A program made the translations under genes and the position numbers. A DNA stretch of 35,937 nucleotides from a virus (Duplodnaviria; Heunggongvirae; Uroviricota; Caudoviricetes). A model generated the notes under the pieces. That model did no database searches and was not told where the DNA came from. It saw only the letters and a program-made list of their open reading frames with translations. The number at the start of each line of letters is the position of its first letter. The first letter of the stretch is position 1. The stretch spans positions 1 through 35,937 of IMG/VR virus record IMGVR_UViG_2778261229_000003. One strand, 5' to 3'. Shown piece by piece: positions 10,092-32,381 of this stretch.

Positions 10092-10778
10092 TCAAAATTT
10101 TGGCAGATCGTCCTGGTCTACGTACCTAGTGTGTTTCACAATAGCTGAAACAAAATGCATTTTATCAACTTCTTCAACAGGAAGAGTGATTGGACGGTGA
10201 TCGCTGTTTATACTACTAAACTGATAGTCTCCGTCTCTTGTTTTGTTCATGATCTTTATCATGTTATGACCATCTTTGGTCCTTACAAAGACTTCATCAC
10301 CTGGATGTACTGGCGTATTTGGTTCAATAACAACATATTCTCCTGACTGAATCCTTGGCCACATGCTGTCACCCTTAACCTTCAGACCGTAAGCATCTTT
10401 ATCGCCACTGTAGATGCTTAACCAACCGGATCTGAATTCAATCATATCCACTGAGCCATCAACTCCCAAAACGGCTTCACCAATTACCGGAACAAAACCC
10501 GCACGAACGTTACCCGCAAACTCAAGATGGTCTGCAGATCCAACTTTGCTATCTGCAAGCATGTCCATCCATCCGCGTGGGAGATTAAAAGATTTTTCAA
10601 TTAGTTCCATCATATCGTCAGCAATGCGTTTTTTTCCGCTTTTTCCTTCCGGATACAGCATTCTGGAAACGTATGATGGTTCCCTTTCTATTCGACGAGC
10701 CAACTCTGAGGCCTTTCCATTACAGAATCGGTCTCTTATCTCTATCAGCCTTAGTCGTCTTTGTTCGTATTTATCCAT
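10092..10778 (-). CDS. cI: CI-type repressor (HTH + S24 LexA-like peptidase domain)
   Basis: 228-aa ORF; C-terminal domain with AG cleavage-site candidate (VRAGFVP), catalytic Ser in GDSMWP and downstream Lys; divergent from cro across an operator region. Confidence 0.85.
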   Translation of the reverse strand: MDKYEQRRLRLIEIRDRFCNGKASELARRIEREPSYVSRMLYPEGKSGKKRIADDMMELIEKSFNLPRGWMDMLADSKVGSADHLEFAGNVRAGFVPVIGEAVLGVDGSVDMIEFRSGWLSIYSGDKDAYGLKVKGDSMWPRIQSGEYVVIEPNTPVHPGDEVFVRTKDGHNMIKIMNKTRDGDYQFSSINSDHRPITLPVEEVDKMHFVSAIVKHTRYVDQDDLPKF

Positions 10779-10798
10779 GATTTAATTCTATCTTTGAT

Positions 10799-10860
10799 TA
10801 CCTATCGGTAAATAACCTGTGGGTATTGATTTGTTTTTTACCTGCAGGTAAACTCACCTT
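10799..10860. promoter_or_regulatory. oR operators with divergent pRM/pR promoters
   Basis: Operators tacctatcggta (10799-10810), acctgtgggta (about 10814-10825) and tacctgcaggta (10839-10850); pR candidate -35 TTGATT (10826-10831), 17-bp spacer, -10 TAAACT. Confidence 0.6.
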
Positions 10861-10886
10861 ATTCAACAACGGGAAGGAGATAGCAA

Positions 10887-11117
10887 ATGGAAGAACTCCG
10901 CTTGTATCTGAACTCCCTTTCACTGGAAGAGCAGAGAGAATTTGCCACCAAGTGCGGAACTTCTATCGGCTATTTGAGGAAAGCACTTAGCCGTAATCAT
11001 GAATTGGGCGCAGCACTTTGTGTTCTGATTGAGAAGTTCAGCAATGGTGAAGTGACTCGCAAAGACCTTCATCCGGTTGATTGGGAAAGCATCTGGCCTG
11101 AATTAATGGCTGCTTAA
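10887..11117 (+). CDS. cro: Cro-like HTH repressor
   Basis: 76-aa ORF, first rightward gene after oR, GGAAGGAGA RBS; HTH segment EQREFATKCGTSIGYLRKAL. Confidence 0.7.
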   Translation: MEELRLYLNSLSLEEQREFATKCGTSIGYLRKALSRNHELGAALCVLIEKFSNGEVTRKDLHPVDWESIWPELMAA

Positions 11118-11125
11118 GTTATCAA

Positions 11126-11157
11126 CGCTCTTACACATTCCAGCCCTGAAAAAGGGC
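11126..11157 (+). promoter_or_regulatory. nutR: nutR (boxA + boxB)
   Basis: CGCTCTTAC (boxA) followed by GCCCTGAAAAAGGGC (boxB), identical to lambda nutR. Confidence 0.85.
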
Positions 11158-11170
11158 ATCAAATTAAACC

Positions 11171-11199
11171 ACACCTATGGTGTATGCATTTATTTGCAT
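11171..11199 (+). terminator. tR1-like terminator region
   Basis: Hairpin ACACC-TAT-GGTGT followed by ATGCATTTATTTGC between nutR and cII, as in lambda tR1 region. Confidence 0.4.
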
Positions 11200-11236
11200 A
11201 CATTCAATCAATTGTTATCTAAGGAAATACTTACAT

Positions 11237-11530
11237 ATGGTTCGTGCAAACAAACGCAACGAGGCTCTACGAATCGAGAGTGCGTTGCTTAACAAAATCG
11301 CAATGCTTGGAACTGAGAAGACAGCGGAAGCTGTGGGAGTTGATAAGTCGCAGATCAGCAGGTGGAAGAGGGATTGGATTCCAAAGTTCTCAATGCTGCT
11401 TGCTGTTCTTGAATGGGGCGTCGTTGACGACGATATGGCTCGATTGGCACGACAAGTTGCTTCGATTCTCACCAATAAAAAACGCCCGGCGGCAACCGAG
11501 CGTTCTGATCAAATACAAATGGAATTTTAA
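11237..11530 (+). CDS. cII: Transcriptional activator CII
   Basis: Start refined to MVRANKRNEALRIESALLNKIAMLGTEKTAEAVGVDKSQISRWKRDWIPKF..., matching lambda CII from memory. Confidence 0.9.
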   Translation: MVRANKRNEALRIESALLNKIAMLGTEKTAEAVGVDKSQISRWKRDWIPKFSMLLAVLEWGVVDDDMARLARQVASILTNKKRPAATERSDQIQMEF

Positions 11531-11552
11531 CAACATCCAGCGAGGTAATTAT

Positions 11553-11825
11553 ATGCGAAACAAAGGCTTTAATCCACCTGATACACACAAAGAAGCTAAG
11601 CGTTTGCGCTTCCTTCGTTCAATTGATGAAAGAACTCAAATCTCTTTTGTGAAAGTTGCCAGAACTGAGCTTCTGAAGGCTGAGGCGAGGGCGTTGCTCT
11701 CGTCTCTACCAAAAGAGGAGGGATATACGTTCATTCCAAACGCATTTCTGGAAAAGCTTCTCAAAGAAGACATATCCGTAAGTCAGTTTAACGATGTTCT
11801 TAAGGTCTTTCGTCAAGGCAGGTAG
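11553..11825 (+). CDS. Hypothetical protein (90 aa) between cII and O
   Basis: ORF starting MRNKGFNPPDTHKEAKRLRF with GAGGT RBS; occupies the second half of track ORF 11244-11825. Confidence 0.5.
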   Translation: MRNKGFNPPDTHKEAKRLRFLRSIDERTQISFVKVARTELLKAEARALLSSLPKEEGYTFIPNAFLEKLLKEDISVSQFNDVLKVFRQGR

Positions 11826-11827
11826 TT

Positions 11828-12775
11828 ATGAGCAATACAGCAAAAATCTACGATTTCAGCGCCGCACACGAGCGCAGGAGCAACAGGATGGAGAACCAGA
11901 AAACTGGTTACATTCCGTTGTACCGGAGCATTCTGAAACAGTCATGGGCGAAAGATGTTTATCTTCGCACCCTGTGGGAAAACCTTCTCCTGAATGCTGC
12001 CAGAAAGCCATACAAAGCGAATTTCAAAGGTCATGAATGGCATCTGCAACCCGGTCAACTGGTTGTGACAGCAGTTGATTTAGGTCTTCAGTTATGCGAC
12101 AGGCATGGCAAGCCGGCAAGCCGTGATCAGGTTGAGCGGATGCTTCAGGTTTTTGTGAAAGAGGGGATGATCTCCATTGATGGAGAGAAGCAAAAAGGTC
12201 GTGTGATCACCATCACAAATCACCATGAATATGCTCAAAAAATGGACGATTCACCCGCACATGAAGCCGCACAAACAACCGCACATGAAGCCGCACATGA
12301 TGAAGCCAGTAATGGTGCGGCTTTCAGCGTACATGCCACACATGAAAGCGCACATGAAGCCGCACAAACAACCGCACATCATGAACAAGAAGGTATTAAC
12401 AAGAATATAAATAATACCCCCCTACCCCCCAATGGGGGAGGCGATAGGCAGGTTAAACCTGAACGTCGCAAGGCAGAACGAATCGACTACGAATCCTTCC
12501 TGAACGCCTACAACACCGAAGTCGGTGACAGACTTCCACACGCTGTTGCGGTCAACGAGAAACGCAAACGTCGCTTGAAGAAAATCATCCCGCAACTGAA
12601 AACGCCAAACGTGGACGGTTTCAGAGCGTATGTCAGGGCGTTTGTGCATCAGGCCAAGCCGTTTTACTTCGGAGACAACGACACTGGTTGGACGGCCGAT
12701 TTTGATTACCTGCTGAGGGAAGATTCGTTAACGGGAGTACGGGAAGGGAAGTTTGCAGACAGGGGGATTGCATGA
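11828..12775 (+). CDS. Replication initiator (lambda O-like N-terminus) with repeat-containing linker
   Basis: 315-aa ORF; N-terminus [10 protein letters not shown] resembles lambda O (MTNTAKILNF); central His/Ala/Glu-rich repeats; ATGA-coupled to downstream helicase. Confidence 0.65.
12255..12430 (+). repeat. Iteron-like direct repeats plus AT-rich tract (candidate replication origin inside the O-like gene)
   Basis: About 31-bp repeat cgcacatgaagccgcacaaacaaccgcacat at 12256 and 12349, shorter ccgcacatga units between, followed by ggtattaacaagaatataaataata and a C-rich tract. Confidence 0.5.
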
Positions 12776-14148
12776 GACAGGATATCGAAGCGAGCGTTAT
12801 CGGTGGCCTGCTGATTGGTGGATTAACACCAACCGCCAGCGACGTTCTGGCAACGCTTGAGCCAGAAGCGTTTTCAATTCCGCTCTACCGGAAAGCCTTC
12901 GAGGTTATCCGCAAGCAGGCGCGAAACAGAAATTTAATCGACGCACTGATGGTTGCCGAGGCGTGCGGAGAGGAGCATTTCACGTCAATCCTGATGACCA
13001 GCAAAAACTGCCCGAGTGCCGCAAACCTGAAGGGATATGCCGGAATGGTCGCGGATAACTATCACCGCCGTCTGGTGCTGGAAATCATGGATGAAATGCG
13101 TGAACCAATTCAGAGCGGAACCATCGATACATCGAGTCAGGCGATGGACGAGCTTGTAAAGCGTCTTTCAGCTATCAGAAAGCCCCGTGACGAGGTTAAA
13201 CCTGTACGGTTAGGGGAAATCATCACCGACTACACTGACACGCTTGACAGGCGTCTGAGGAACGGAGAAGAGTCAGATACCCTGAAGACCGGAATCGAAG
13301 AACTTGACGCTATCACCGGAGGGATGAACGCTGAAGACCTGGTGATTATCGCCGCTCGTCCTGGTATGGGGAAAACCGAACTGGCGCTAAAGATTGCCGA
13401 AGGTGTTGCAAGCCGCGTTATTCCTGGTTCTGACGTCCGGCGCGGAGTATTGATTTTCTCGATGGAAATGAGCGCATTGCAGATTGCAGAGCGGAGCATT
13501 GCCAACGCCGGGAGGATGTCGGTTAGCGTGCTGCGAAATCCTGCATCGATGGATGACGAGGGCTGGGCACGTGTTGCTAACGGCATGAGTCAGCTTGCGG
13601 ATTTGGATGTATGGGTAGTCGATGCCTCGCGGTTATCGGTCGAAGAAATACGCTCAATCGCAGAACGGCACAAACAGGAAAATCCAAACCTGTCACTCAT
13701 CATGGCGGATTATCTTGGCCTGATTGAGAAGCCGAAAGCAGACCGCAACGACCTTGCAATTGCTCACATCTCCGGAAGCCTGAAGGCGATAGCGAAAGAC
13801 CTGAAAACGCCTGTTATCTCCCTGAGTCAGCTTTCGCGCGATGTTGAGAAGCGACCAAACAAACGCCCGACAAACGCAGATTTGCGTGATTCAGGAAGCA
13901 TTGAGCAGGACGCAGACTCAATCATCATGCTCTATCGGGAAGCGGTATATGACGAGAACAGTAGCGCCGCGCCATTTGCTGAAATCATTGTGACGAAAAA
14001 CCGTTTTGGCTCACTTGGTACGGTTTACCAGCGGTTCTGCAACGGACACTTTGTTGCATGTGATCAGGATGAAGCCAGACAGATTTGCACAGCATCAAAT
14101 GCACCTGCTGCGCGTGGCAGACGATATGCACAAGGGGCTGACGTATGA
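12772..14148 (+). CDS. Replicative DNA helicase, DnaB family
   Basis: 458-aa ORF with Walker [14 protein letters not shown], Walker B/arginine-finger region ([23 protein letters not shown]) and DnaB-like N-terminal domain. Confidence 0.85.
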
Positions 14149-14173
14149 CCATCTACATTACTGAGCTAATAAC

Positions 14174-14206
14174 AGGCCTGCTGGTAATCGCAGGCCTTTT
14201 TATTTG
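14174..14206 (+). terminator. tR2-like rho-independent terminator
   Basis: Hairpin AGGCCTGC-TGGTAATC-GCAGGCCT followed by TTTTTATTT, between helicase gene and ninB. Confidence 0.7.
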
Positions 14207-14221
14207 GGGGAGAGGGAAGTC

Positions 14222-14662
14222 ATGAAAAAACTAACCTTTGAAATTCGATCTCCAGCACATCAGCAAAACGCTATTCACGCAGTACAGCAAATCCTTCCAG
14301 ACCCAACCAAACCAATCGTAGTAACCATTCAGGAACGCAACCGCAGCTTAGACCAAAACAGGAAGCTATGGGCCTGCTTAGGTGACGTCTCTCGTCAGGT
14401 TGAATGGCATGGTCGCTGGCTGGATGCAGAAAGCTGGAAGTGTGTGTTTACCGCAGCATTAAAGCAGCAGGACGTTGTTCCTAACCTTGCCGGGAATGGC
14501 TTTGTGGTAATAGGCCAGTCAACCAGCAGGATGCGTGTAGGCGAATTTGCGGAGCTATTAGAGCTTATACAGGCATTCGGTACAGAGCGTGGCGTTAAGT
14601 GGTCAGACGAAGCGAGACTGGCTCTGGAGTGGAAAGCGAGATGGGGAGATCGGGCTGCATGA
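14222..14662 (+). CDS. ninB: Recombination protein NinB
   Basis: Start refined to MKKLTFEIRSPAHQQNAIHAVQQILPDPTKP..., matching lambda NinB from memory. Confidence 0.85.
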   Translation: MKKLTFEIRSPAHQQNAIHAVQQILPDPTKPIVVTIQERNRSLDQNRKLWACLGDVSRQVEWHGRWLDAESWKCVFTAALKQQDVVPNLAGNGFVVIGQSTSRMRVGEFAELLELIQAFGTERGVKWSDEARLALEWKARWGDRAA

Positions 14663-22539: not shown

Positions 22540-24738
22540 ATGGCAGAAAAAAAGATGACTGACTGGCATCGCAAGGTGCTGTGCAACTTTGATAATGCCT
22601 GGTCAGCAACGCAGGATATGCGTGAGCAGATTATTGAGGCTCAACGTTTCGTCCGGGTATCCGGCGCACAGTGGGAAGGCAGCACAAACGCTGGTTACTC
22701 ATTTGATGAAGGCAGGTTTGAGCATTACCCGCGCTTTGAACTGAATAAGATTGCCCGTGAATGTGATCGCATCATTGGCGAGTATCGACAGAATCGCATC
22801 AGCGTTAAATTCAGGCCGAAGGACGATAAGGCATCGGAAGCGTTAGCCGAAAAGATGAACGGCAAATTCCGCGCTGACTATCAGGAAACATCCGGTGGCG
22901 AAGCGTGTGATAACGCATTTGATGATGCTGTAACGGGCGGATTCGGTTGTTTCCGCATGTGTGCCGATTACGAAGATGAAATGGATCCGAGTAACGAGCA
23001 GCGACGCATCAGCCTTCTTCCTGTTTACGACCCAGCGACATGCGTCTTCTTCGATCAGGACAGCAAGCAATATGACCGCTCTGATGCTATGTGGGCTATG
23101 GAAATGTTCTCCATGACGCCTAAAGCGTTCGAGGCTGAATACCCTGATTCCATCGCGGCAAGCCTTTCTCGTGATGACACTGGCACTCAATATGACTGGT
23201 CAACGCCAGATGCCATCTATGTTGGTCGCTACTACGAAGTTCGCATAGAGAAGGTGAAGCTCACGGCATGGCGCAACCCTGTTAGCGGAGAAACGGCAAT
23301 CTATGATGAAGAGCAAATCAAAGATATTGTCGACGAGCTGACCGATGGCGCATTCGAACTGATTGGTGAGCGGACAGTGAAGAAACGCAGAGTTTATTGC
23401 GGTCTTCTGTCTGGCGCTGAATGGCTGGAAGAACCGAAGCGTATTCCGGGCGAACATATTCCTCTCATCCCGGTATATGGGCGTCGCTCATTTGTTGATA
23501 ATCAGGAGCGAATCGAAGGCCACGCAGCAAAAGCGATGGATGCACAGCGTCTTGAGAACCTGATGGTTTCCATGATTGCAGATAACGCTACTCAGGCTGG
23601 CGGTGATGGAATTCCTGTAGTTGATGTTGACATGATTCCTGGTCCTCTCGCCACTCATTGGGCGGAGCGCAACAAAAAGCGCCCGGCGTTCCTGCCGATG
23701 GTAAGTCTGAAAAACAAAAACGGAGATATTACTGCGCAGGCTCAGGTCAGCAGTTATACACCTCCGACACAAATGCCTCCTGCTCTTGCCGGGCTATTGC
23801 AGTACACCGGAACGGCTATTCAGCAAATTACAGGCGCGTCGCAGCTTGAGAACATGCCGAGCAACGTCGCCACCGATACCGTTGATAGCATCTTTAACCG
23901 GATGGACACGCAGTCCTATATCTACATGGACAACATGGCTAAATCCATGCGTCGCGCTGGTGTTGTGTGGCTTTCTATGGCGCGTGAGGTCTATGGCAGT
24001 GATACGCCGATGCGTATCGTTAATGAGGACGGCAGCGATGACGTGGCGCTGATGACTGGTGAAGTGGTTGACCGTCAGACAGGGCAGGTTATCGCGCTTA
24101 ATGACCTTTCGCATGGCAACTATGAAGTGACTGTCGATGTCGGTCAGTCGTTCGCTACTCGCCGTGATGCAACGGTTAAGTCGTTACTTTCCATGCTGGC
24201 ACTTATCCCACCAGGAACGCCGAAGCACGACCTTGTATCGTCGATGATTCTCGACAATATGGACGGCGAAGGGATGGACGACCTTAAAGAATACAACCGC
24301 AATCAGTTGCTTCTGTCTGGAGTTATCAAGCCGAGAACACCAGAAGAACAGCAGATGGTTGAGCAGGCGAAACAACAACAGGACAGTCAGCCAGATCCGG
24401 CTATGGTTGCAGCGCAAGGTCAGCTTCTTGCAGGTCAGGCTGAATTGCAGAAAGCGCAGAACGAACAGGCAGCCATTCAGGTTAAAGCATTCCAGGCACA
24501 GACTGATGCTCAGGTTGCAGCGGCAAACGTTGTGAAAATCCTCGCATCTGCCGATAGCCAGCAGAAATCTGATATCCGCGAGGCTCTGAAACTGCTCGGA
24601 CAGTTCCAGCAACAGCAAGGAGACAATGCCCGTGCTGATGCAGAGCTTGTCCTGAAAAGTCAGGCGCAGGGCCATGCGCAGCGCATGGACATCAGCAGCA
24701 TCCTGCAAAAATCAACTCAGCAACAACCACAGCAGTAA
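22540..24738 (+). CDS. Portal protein (P22 gp1-like)
   Basis: 732-aa ORF; segments RRVYCGLLSGAEWLEEPKRIPGEHIPLIPVYG and C-terminal PEEQQMVEQAKQQQDSQPDPAMVAAQGQLLAGQAELQKAQN resemble P22 portal. Confidence 0.85.
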   Translation: MAEKKMTDWHRKVLCNFDNAWSATQDMREQIIEAQRFVRVSGAQWEGSTNAGYSFDEGRFEHYPRFELNKIARECDRIIGEYRQNRISVKFRPKDDKASEALAEKMNGKFRADYQETSGGEACDNAFDDAVTGGFGCFRMCADYEDEMDPSNEQRRISLLPVYDPATCVFFDQDSKQYDRSDAMWAMEMFSMTPKAFEAEYPDSIAASLSRDDTGTQYDWSTPDAIYVGRYYEVRIEKVKLTAWRNPVSGETAIYDEEQIKDIVDELTDGAFELIGERTVKKRRVYCGLLSGAEWLEEPKRIPGEHIPLIPVYGRRSFVDNQERIEGHAAKAMDAQRLENLMVSMIADNATQAGGDGIPVVDVDMIPGPLATHWAERNKKRPAFLPMVSLKNKNGDITAQAQVSSYTPPTQMPPALAGLLQYTGTAIQQITGASQLENMPSNVATDTVDSIFNRMDTQSYIYMDNMAKSMRRAGVVWLSMAREVYGSDTPMRIVNEDGSDDVALMTGEVVDRQTGQVIALNDLSHGNYEVTVDVGQSFATRRDATVKSLLSMLALIPPGTPKHDLVSSMILDNMDGEGMDDLKEYNRNQLLLSGVIKPRTPEEQQMVEQAKQQQDSQPDPAMVAAQGQLLAGQAELQKAQNEQAAIQVKAFQAQTDAQVAAANVVKILASADSQQKSDIREALKLLGQFQQQQGDNARADAELVLKSQAQGHAQRMDISSILQKSTQQQPQQ

Positions 24739-31079: not shown

Positions 31080-32381
31080 ATGGCTACTTGGCAACAAGGA
31101 ATCAACTCAGGCGGCTTTCTTGCTGGTATCGGTGGGCAAAACTCAAATGCGCCAAAGGCAAGTGATGTAAGTGAGGCGTTGGCCTATATTCGCCAGAACA
31201 ACGAAATGGAGCGCTCAGGTCGCAATAACATCGGCCTTCAGGCGTTGCAGGGTCTTGGTAGTGTCGCTCAAGCATATCAAGCCGCAAAGCAACAGGAAGC
31301 GGATGCTGCATTCCAAAAAGAATATGCGGCAGCCATCCAGTCCGGCGATCGACAGCAGGTTCGAAATCTGATGACCAAATATCCTGGTCAATTAGAGAAG
31401 ATTCAGTCTGGTATGAAGTGGGCAGACGAAGACCAGCGCAATTCCATCGGTACCTTAGCGGCTGGCGCACGCCTTGCGTCATCGTCTCCAGAAGCAATGC
31501 AATCATGGCTGCAAAACAACGCCAAGGAACTGACTCGCGTCGGTGTTGACCCTAATAACGTTGCTCAGATGTATCAGCAGAATCCTTCAGGATTTGGTGA
31601 GTTTGTTGATCACCTTGGAATGGCTGCTCTTGGTCCGATTGATTACTTCAATGTTCAGGACAAGATGGCTGGTCGTGAGATTGACCGAGGCAGGCTGGCA
31701 GAGACAATCCGCAGCAATCAGGCAGGAGAAGCACTAACAGCTCGAGGTCAGGACATCCAGATACGTGGACAGAACATCAGCGCACAGAATGCTGCTCTTT
31801 CCCGAGAAATACAAAGAGCAGAATTACAAGAAAAGGCTCTGGACAGACAGATAGCCAGAGAAAGCAATCAGTTAAAGCTTGAAGAGCTAAAACAGAAACA
31901 GGCAGATGTTCGGCAAAAGGCTGACATAGCCCGCGCTGACAGGCAGGCCGCCGCTCAGGGTGCAGTTGATACGTTCAGCACCGCGCTTGATTCTCTCAAC
32001 GAGATAGAGCAAAGCCCCGGCCTTTCAAAAGCAGTAGGAATTCGCTCAGCGTTTCCGACAGTTCCTGGCTCTGATGCGGCTAACTTTGAAGCAAGGCTCG
32101 ACACCTTTAAAGCTCAAACATTCCTTCCTATGGTGCAGTCCCTGAAGGGTATGGGCGCTCTTTCAGATGCAGAGGGTAAAAAATTATCCGATGCGGTTGG
32201 TGCCCTAAGCCCCAAAATGAGTGAAAAGGCTTTTCGTGACTCTATCGGAAAGATTAGAAATCAGCTTGAAAGCAAGTTGAGCACTGTTAAAAAACAGTTT
32301 GATTATCAGGAGCCAGTACAGAATACGCCAGCGCAACAACCTACTACTGGCAGTAATTTTTCTTCACTATGGGGTGATTAA
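31080..32381 (+). CDS. Ejection protein (P22 gp20-like)
   Basis: 433-aa ORF in gene 20 position, coiled-coil central region. Confidence 0.6.
   Translation: MATWQQGINSGGFLAGIGGQNSNAPKASDVSEALAYIRQNNEMERSGRNNIGLQALQGLGSVAQAYQAAKQQEADAAFQKEYAAAIQSGDRQQVRNLMTKYPGQLEKIQSGMKWADEDQRNSIGTLAAGARLASSSPEAMQSWLQNNAKELTRVGVDPNNVAQMYQQNPSGFGEFVDHLGMAALGPIDYFNVQDKMAGREIDRGRLAETIRSNQAGEALTARGQDIQIRGQNISAQNAALSREIQRAELQEKALDRQIARESNQLKLEELKQKQADVRQKADIARADRQAAAQGAVDTFSTALDSLNEIEQSPGLSKAVGIRSAFPTVPGSDAANFEARLDTFKAQTFLPMVQSLKGMGALSDAEGKKLSDAVGALSPKMSEKAFRDSIGKIRNQLESKLSTVKKQFDYQEPVQNTPAQQPTTGSNFSSLWGD

Follow-up and report, generated by a model that had tools for sequence, protein, structure and literature searches.

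We found that the segment 12255–12438 of IMG/VR virus record IMGVR_UViG_2778261229_000003, whose 35,937 nucleotides (nt) were analyzed as a whole and are referred to below as the window, is very likely the vegetative replication origin of a P22-like temperate phage of the CUS-3/Kapi1 type, and that it lies within the phage's own O-like initiator gene. The segment contains short direct repeats, which are very probably the initiator-binding sites of the origin, followed by an AT-rich tract and a palindrome. We infer its replication function from sequence comparisons. These point to a cis-acting, initiator-specific DNA element with an unwinding tract, because the repeat type and the initiator's winged-helix domain vary in concert, constraint is seen at the level of DNA, the AT-rich tract is invariant among close relatives, and the junctions of exchanged gene modules fall in this tract.

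Organization of the candidate origin

A preliminary description of this DNA had proposed an O-like gene at this place. Consistent with this proposal, the encoded protein matched Pfam family PF04492 (Phage_rep_O) at amino acids (aa) 20–131 (E = 2e-14, 54.3 bits with a cut-off of 28.7), and the whole protein belonged to PHROG 345, "replication initiation O-like" (E = 3.7e-98). The repeats correspond to codons 143–186 of 315, between the Phage_rep_O domain and a C-terminal module that begins at about aa 192. The following features make up the gene and the candidate origin.

11828–12775, plus strand: O-like replication initiator gene, 315 aa, which holds the candidate origin (open reading frame; Pfam, PHROG)
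11885–12220, plus strand: N-terminal winged-helix DNA-binding domain (Pfam), with the predicted recognition helix at aa 99–112 (nt 12122–12163)
12255–12302, plus strand: left iteron block, four 12-nt direct units CCGCACATGAAG, CCGCACAAACAA, CCGCACATGAAG, CCGCACATGATG
12303–12335, plus strand: central spacer, 33 nt between the blocks, containing the conserved 17-mer CCAGTAATGGTGCGGCT at 12306–12322
12336–12383, plus strand: right iteron block, four 12-nt direct units CCACACATGAAA (degenerate), GCGCACATGAAG, CCGCACAAACAA, CCGCACATCATG
12384–12416, plus strand: AT-rich tract, candidate DNA-unwinding element, 18% GC, purine-rich on the plus strand, with AACAAGAA twice, 14 nt apart
12417–12438, plus strand: C-rich tract and 13-nt palindrome (CCCCCA-A-TGGGGG at 12426–12438), right arm of the candidate origin

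The preliminary description had also reported a unit of about 31 bp present twice (at 12256 and 12349) together with sub-repeats. Both were recovered: an exact 31-nt repeat, CGCACATGAAGCCGCACAAACAACCGCACAT, occurs at 12256–12286 and 12349–12379 (zero expected from 100 dinucleotide-preserving shuffles), and it breaks down into eight 12-nt units with the pattern nCC GCA CAT nnn, arranged in two blocks of four. Tandem Repeats Finder and a second repeat search, a check suggested in the same description, agreed on the 12-nt period and returned the consensus CCGCACATGAAG. With the sequence read in register, the left-block units have their first letters at 12255, 12267, 12279 and 12291, and those of the right block at 12336, 12348, 12360 and 12372. 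The 12336 unit (CCACACAT) is degenerate; most close relatives have GCC GCA CAT instead. None of the units has an internal inverted repeat or dyad symmetry; they are 12-nt direct repeats, four on each side of the 33-nt centre. Seven of the 12 matches to the 8-mer core motif SCGCACAW in the 35.9-kb window were located inside 125 nt of repeats, all on the plus strand, and no other cluster of this motif was present anywhere in the window. Also, no comparable repeat cluster was detected in the 1.8 kb scanned around the initiator gene (11500–13300).

On the downstream side, the repeats are directly adjoined by the AT-rich tract, in which 6 of 33 nt (12384–12416) are G or C. The AT-rich stretch and the C-rich tract named in the preliminary description were both found here: GC content was 0.275 over 12380–12419, and the C-rich tract ACCCCCCTACCCCCC, which spans 12416–12430, comes next and leads into the palindrome at 12426–12438. 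DnaA boxes were not enriched, with 29 matches in the window versus 30 expected and none within 12255–12438. No promoter-like site was found inside the initiator gene, and no RNA element matched Rfam at gathering thresholds in 10500–14500. Minus-strand terminator-like matches at 12365–12348 and 12256–12244 were rejected, being weak 5-bp stems whose count was within shuffle expectation. Similarly, a 7-bp inverted repeat, GGTATTA/TAATACC, which flanks the AT-rich tract, was not kept in relatives and probably arose by chance at the module junction.

Conservation, constraint and exchange of the repeat region

The O gene is 97–98% identical in phages CUS-3, JEP4, Gally, HF4s and about 50 Stx2a phages, and the N-domain with the repeat segment was found in 286 of 5,426 complete Escherichia coli genomes. 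A degenerate-pattern scan limited to a single genome of each species detected 45 loci with N-domains 41–85% identical to that of the window; the genera represented include Xenorhabdus, Yersinia, Enterobacter, Pantoea, Brenneria, Sodalis and Proteus. Full-length copies shared one layout after the sequence ..ITNYxEYAxK: a block of 12-nt units, a conserved centre that encodes (A/P)SN(G/D)AA, a second block, CAT GAA CAA GAA and the AT-rich tract, followed by a C-terminal domain that varied from locus to locus. We further examined the AH clade, which comprises 32 diverse sequences with CCGCACAT or CCGCGCAT units from genome and phage collections (N-domains 59–99% identical to each other). The comparison of copy number among homologues, proposed in the preliminary description, gave a regular picture here. 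Cores were at fixed codon offsets, 27 sequences had 3+3 units and five, including the window, had 4+4, the position and period of the left block were kept in these 32 relatives, and the last left and first right cores were 45 nt apart in 32 of 32. The repeats were then followed by an AT-rich tract opening with GAACAAGAA. In one close relative, L080 (IMGVR_UViG_2778261458_000005), 93 bp are missing and a single iteron block is left, which is consistent with recombination between the two 31-nt repeats.

Codon usage in the units was strongly skewed. The core Ala codon was GCA in 138 and GCG in 46 of 184 units and never GCC or GCT, compared with 24/17/27/32% in the rest of the same genes (Fisher P = 3e-60, a value that ignores phylogeny), and the core His codons were 171 CAT and 3 CAC, versus 81 and 65 outside the linker. 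In the EVT clade, Val was encoded by GTA in 31 of 32 units and Thr by ACA in 29 of 32. Among 65 distinct close-relative genes, nucleotide diversity was 0.0077 at 56 core positions and 0.0436 at 40 inter-core positions (Mann-Whitney P = 2e-5); unit cores were thus about 6-fold less variable than inter-core bases. Besides, substitutions in the linker fell on all three codon positions, unlike those in the flanking domains, and amino acid changes were tolerated with the DNA core kept (e.g., GCG to GAG). The linker peptide was wholly different between clades, sister clades having PDEPSEEPS or EVTNEVTNQVTN at the equivalent position. These patterns argue that constraint is on the DNA and not on the peptide.

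Such data bear on the view that the repeats were selected solely as protein, as a periodic His/Ala-rich flexible or metal-binding linker with no cis-acting role of the DNA. The repeats are in frame and their four-codon period yields a periodic peptide, the segment is predicted to be disordered (see below), and linker length is constant among close relatives. However, the peptide differs across clades (AH.., PDEP.., EVTN..) where period, copy number and position are kept; synonymous positions are constrained, with GCA or GCG in all 184 units and uniform within each genome, and with the CAT bias given above; residues change where the DNA core stays; and in Salmonella phage L, which has a distant homologue of the initiator gene as gene 18, the counterparts of the units recur every 11 nt, so that three different frames are used to read them. 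We consider a purely protein-level role very unlikely. Codon bias, core constraint, peptide divergence and the phage L reading frames show, therefore, that the His/Ala-rich peptide is a by-product of in-frame reading of the iterons (CC-GCA-CAT) in a disordered linker. The His/Ala/Glu linker had been singled out in the preliminary description as unusual for an initiator. Its peptide does read as described, but an unusual functional linker it is not, as other clades have PDEPSEEPS or EVTNEVTNQVTN there and aa 140–200, encoded by the repeats and AT-rich tract, are predicted to be disordered (predicted local distance difference test score, pLDDT, <40).

We found that the units differ between N-domain clades but keep their place and period, giving at least four specificity classes:

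Unit CCGCACAT or CCGCGCAT: peptide AH.., AH clade
Unit of GAACCATCC type: peptide PDEP.., S.Inf 5-2, L116 and L117
Unit GGTAACA: peptide EVTN.., L118, L119 and L122–L127
Unit of GATACAC type: L121

Within the AH clade, the core was GCA in all units of 21 genomes and GCG/GAG in all units of nine, the remaining two having one deviant unit each. This A/G core base segregated perfectly with the substitutions A82S and D100H (SRD to SRH), which are located at the N-terminal ends of helix 2 and the predicted recognition helix, respectively. In the AlphaFold2 model, the domain is composed of a helix at aa 44–58, strands at 63–80, helix 2 at 82–88, the recognition helix at 99–112 and a wing at 115–129 (pLDDT 74–91). 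The model as a whole is moderate (mean pLDDT 63, alignment of 23 sequences); the homology search with the N-domain gave mainly partial or frameshifted fragments, which made the alignment shallow. The top Foldseek matches in the PDB were all winged-helix regulators, with weak scores (E ~0.01), and a sequence search against solved structures gave no matches at E ≤ 1.

A natural exchange was found in L098, a Yersinia vastinensis prophage (NZ_CACVAF010000008.1). Compared with Yersinia phage vB_YenM_210.17 (L003), its initiator was 95–97% identical at aa 1–78 and 99% identical in the C-terminal domain, and just 71% identical at aa 79–133. The differing stretch, aa 79–178, corresponds to the winged-helix part plus the iterons; the recognition helix changes from SRD to SRH and all six iteron cores from GCA to GCG/GAG. 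L098 is thus a clean exchange of a cassette of winged helix plus iterons. The association between repeat type and N-domain is linkage evidence and not a statistically independent test of covariation, because independent events are few.

Comparison with other phages placed the boundaries of exchanged modules in the AT-rich tract. HK97, HK446, SPN9CC, ST104, Stx2-1717, BTP1 and others were common to the window only in 12401–12775 (~95% identity), and HK97-type O genes have a lambda-like N-domain and different repeats. Klebsiella phages 2b LV-2017 and Mulock and Yersinia phage 210.17 were common to the window only up to ~12411 (~75–80% identity). Past this point, they have a lambda-type C-terminal domain and the lambda right-arm sequence GAGAATTCTGGCGAATCCTCTGAC; the replication gene downstream is also a different one, annotated as "DNA replication protein P" in phage 210.17. 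The crossovers of these mosaics therefore map to ~12401–12411, inside the AT-rich tract. The left part of the candidate origin moves with the DNA-binding domain and the right arm with the C-terminal domain, which presumably contacts the helicase or its loader. A C5/G5 inverted repeat was found with other loops in HK97 (CCCCC-TAAC-GGGGG), L112 (CCCCC-GAT-GGGGG) and L117 (TCCCCT-GA-AGGGGA), and also in S.Inf 5-2, and was co-inherited with the C-terminal domain and the DnaB-helicase-type module. The tract itself was invariant: no variable site was found in 12381–12431 (AT-rich plus C-rich tract) across the 65 close-relative genes, and GAACAAGAA, at its start (within 12383–12407 in the window), was present without synonymous variation in 39 of 43 diverse relatives.

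This location raises the question whether the region is a slippage- or recombination-prone, low-complexity junction of exchangeable modules that is passively kept and has no sequence-specific function. That it is a mosaic boundary, that L080 lost 93 bp by recombination between 31-nt repeats, and that many database entries for the protein are partial and end in the linker would all fit such a junction. Yet copy number and spacing are strict across genera (3+3 or 4+4 with the 45-nt gap), cores are more constrained than inter-core bases, and the crossovers map to the AT-rich tract, not to the repeats. This explanation seems to us extremely unlikely.

The central 17-mer CCAGTAATGGTGCGGCT, the CCAGTAATGRCGCGGCT element, was recognisable at ≤5 mismatches in 43 of 44 sequences and in all iteron classes, including phage L, where it is at 22687–22703 of L133. 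In its pattern, CCAGTnnTnnCGCGGC, the bases at third codon positions (T of AGT, then the T and the C that end the next two codons) are kept where amino acids change. This observation points to a role of the central element at the DNA level that is unrelated to iteron specificity. We also considered the centre as an inverted iteron, since in the window GTGCGGCTT and AAGCCGCAC are reverse complements and the former is paired with a unit of the right block in the predicted fold of the region as single-stranded DNA (z = -5.1). As an explanation for all clades it was rejected: those with unrelated iterons (EVT, PDEP and phage L) keep the centre, and the complementarity fails there. A second near-match to the 17-mer (2 mismatches) is present on the minus strand at 13411–13427, inside the helicase gene; it may well be a coincidence, as ~0.16 matches are expected per window by chance.

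Proposed origin model and comparison with known systems

In the origin model, the winged-helix N-domain would bind the 8-bp cores (CCGCACAT) of the eight 12-bp direct units, placed in two blocks of four that are 45 bp apart. By analogy with the lambda O-some, the oligomeric initiator complex would then stress and melt the adjoining 33-bp AT-rich tract (12384–12416). Gene order and modular co-inheritance suggest that the C-terminal domain would recruit the phage DnaB-like helicase encoded by the next gene, and not a loader of the lambda P type.

A different possibility is that the repeats are protein-binding sites but not an origin, serving in autoregulation, titration or handcuffing, exclusion of related phages, or binding of another phage or host protein, with the origin located elsewhere. 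Plasmid iterons and cloned ori-lambda fragments do act as inhibitors or titrators (PMC3349717), and the central 17-mer, kept independently of iteron type, could bind a different factor. On the other hand, the invariant AT-rich tract and palindrome directly after the repeats reproduce the full plan of the lambda origin, repeat type is linked to the recognition helix of the initiator and to no other gene, and neither another cluster of the 8-mer core in the window nor a comparable cluster in 11500–13300 was found. We regard this possibility as unlikely.

Several points weigh against the origin model. The units lack dyad symmetry, in contrast to the iterons of lambda, to which O binds as a dimer (PMC5043065), and their 12-bp spacing is out of helical phase. 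The conserved central 17-mer lies outside what the model accounts for. Few independent events underlie the covariation (some five specificity classes and the cassette transfers), its statistics ignore phylogeny, and concerted evolution among the repeats could add to codon uniformity. The structural model is moderate, with weak Foldseek E-values, and the phage L origin used for comparison is itself only called "putative". Finally, binding, unwinding and autonomous replication are all deduced from the sequence.

The closest known counterpart is phage L, a P22-like Salmonella phage. Its gene 18 product showed 21% identity over the full length in BLASTP (E = 2e-8), and a DnaB-like helicase gene comes next, as in the window. 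Its putative origin (GenBank MW013503, rep_origin 31650–31726; PMC8022706) likewise consists of two mid-gene blocks of short direct repeats, with a near-identical central 17-mer (ACC AGT AAT GAC GCG GCT) and then an AT-rich tract, AACAATAATATAAATAAT. The two differ in their units: phage L has an 11-nt unit, TGTCCAACGGA, in 3 + 2–3 copies with rotating frames, whereas the window has a 12-nt unit, CCGCACATnnnn, in 4+4 copies with a constant frame. The iteron sequence and recognition helix are unrelated between the two, and the phage L origin is itself a prediction. According to the phage L genome paper, repeats particular to each gene occur in lambda O and in gene 18 of both P22 and L, and these are proposed to be the origins (PMC8022706). 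With P22 genes 18 and 12, the window shares the gene order (cII-like gene, small open reading frame, initiator, DnaB-like helicase) and an origin reported inside the initiator gene. As described in the phage L paper (PMC8022706), P22 gene 18 has four repeats of ~20 bp, whose length and sequence differ from those of the window units.

The parallel with lambda drawn in the preliminary description holds in part: the repeats are mid-gene, an AT-rich tract comes next and comparative data support an origin, but the units are short direct repeats and not 18–19-bp palindromes. In lambda, the origin is also inside initiator gene O, a member of the same Pfam family, between the N-terminal DNA-binding and C-terminal domains; the four annotated 18-nt iterons are at about codons 117–145 of O, an equivalent position, and are followed in the same order by an AT-rich tract and an inverted repeat (a palindrome with a 10-bp stem). 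Also, in both phages the N-domain with iterons and the C-domain with its partner protein are exchangeable modules. In contrast, lambda iterons are near-palindromes of 18–19 bp, spaced 20–24 bp apart, that bind O dimers (PMC5043065), whereas the window has eight 12-bp direct units in two blocks with a conserved centre. The partner is the P loader, which recruits host DnaB, in lambda and a phage DnaB-like helicase in the window.

Iteron plasmids (pPS10 RepA, R6K pi, F RepE and RK2 TrfA) similarly have direct repeats, presumably bound by winged helices, beside an AT-rich unwinding element. A short motif repeated in the AT-rich tract is likewise a feature of plasmid unwinding elements (PMC4081077). 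Plasmid iterons, however, typically measure 17–22 bp and are found outside the rep gene, usually with DnaA boxes on either side, while the window units are 12 bp, are within the gene and show no DnaA-box enrichment. With regard to doubled motifs, the AT-rich tract of S.Inf 5-2 has AACAAGAAGGTAGTT twice, and those of lambda and HK97 have ACAAAAGA(C) twice; these short motifs may be the repeated motif of an unwinding element.

The element is a further case of the known principle of an origin within the initiator gene, and it extends this textbook principle to one more family; nothing here should surprise a specialist. No paper with the repeat or the peptide of the linker turned up in a search of the literature, and the CUS-3 and Kapi1 records annotate a "replication protein" with no ori feature. 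The assignment would locate the probable origin of the replication module in the 286 E. coli genomes, CUS-3, Kapi1 and many Stx2a-converting phages. In Stx phages, blocking phage DNA replication impairs stx gene expression (PMC7466680), and for this reason the cis site is relevant to Stx2a phages and to plasmids or reporters built from them. Besides, the natural specificity swaps (core A to G with D100H and A82S; the L098 cassette) could offer a route to how O-type winged-helix domains read iterons. Iteron hairpins at ori-lambda have recently been proposed as triggers of defence systems (bioRxiv 10.64898/2026.07.10.737580); because the window units are non-palindromic, they would not form such hairpins.

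A more speculative reading, to which we give rather less than even chances, is that the family reaching to phage L gp18 has an origin plan unlike that of lambda. It would combine two equal blocks that expand and contract together (3+3, 4+4) at a fixed 45-bp separation, the specificity-independent 17-bp element CCAGTnnTnnCGCGGC as a second cis element, and the A/G core switch with D100H/A82S as a base-to-amino-acid rule. If so, the two-block plan would suggest two head-to-tail initiator oligomers and not dimers on palindromes, and CCAGTnnTnnCGCGGC might be a host-factor site, a priming site or a constant contact of the initiator.

Neighbouring genes and minor observations

The initiator gene is directly followed, with a 4-nt overlap (11828–12775/12772–14148), by the gene for the presumed partner of its C-terminal domain:

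12772–14148, plus strand: DnaB-like replicative helicase of the P22 gene 12 type (Pfam DnaB_C, 1.8e-77; DnaB N-terminal domain, 4.5e-13; PHROG 19)

Upstream of the initiator gene are a cII homologue and a 90-codon open reading frame, and the remaining window is a P22-like virion module, the nearest phages being 720R6, Kapi1 and CUS-3. The 90-codon open reading frame (11553–11825), between cII and the initiator gene, belongs to PHROG 2519 (function not assigned). Its last 34 residues are weakly similar to lambda O aa 26–59 (29% identity, pairwise E = 5e-4), and its Kapi1 homologue bears the note "CDD:Phage_rep_O". This reading frame may be what is left of a lambda-type O gene, at its 5' end, that was displaced.

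Most database entries for the N-domain (P0001–P0073) are labeled "partial", with 150–210 aa ending in or just past the linker, and several are frameshifted there, which suggests frequent assembly breaks, or gene-calling failures, at the repeats or mosaic junction. Viral contigs L005 and L018 have a frameshift in the C-rich homopolymer runs after the AT-rich tract, at the equivalent of ~12417–12430; sequencing error, decay to a pseudogene or length polymorphism in the C-rich tract could each account for it. Finally, a strong terminator-like hairpin (12 pairs, then TTTTTTATT) was observed on the minus strand at 11506–11479, antisense to the 3' end of cII. No Rfam match was found there; the hairpin resembles the terminator of the lambda oop antisense RNA.

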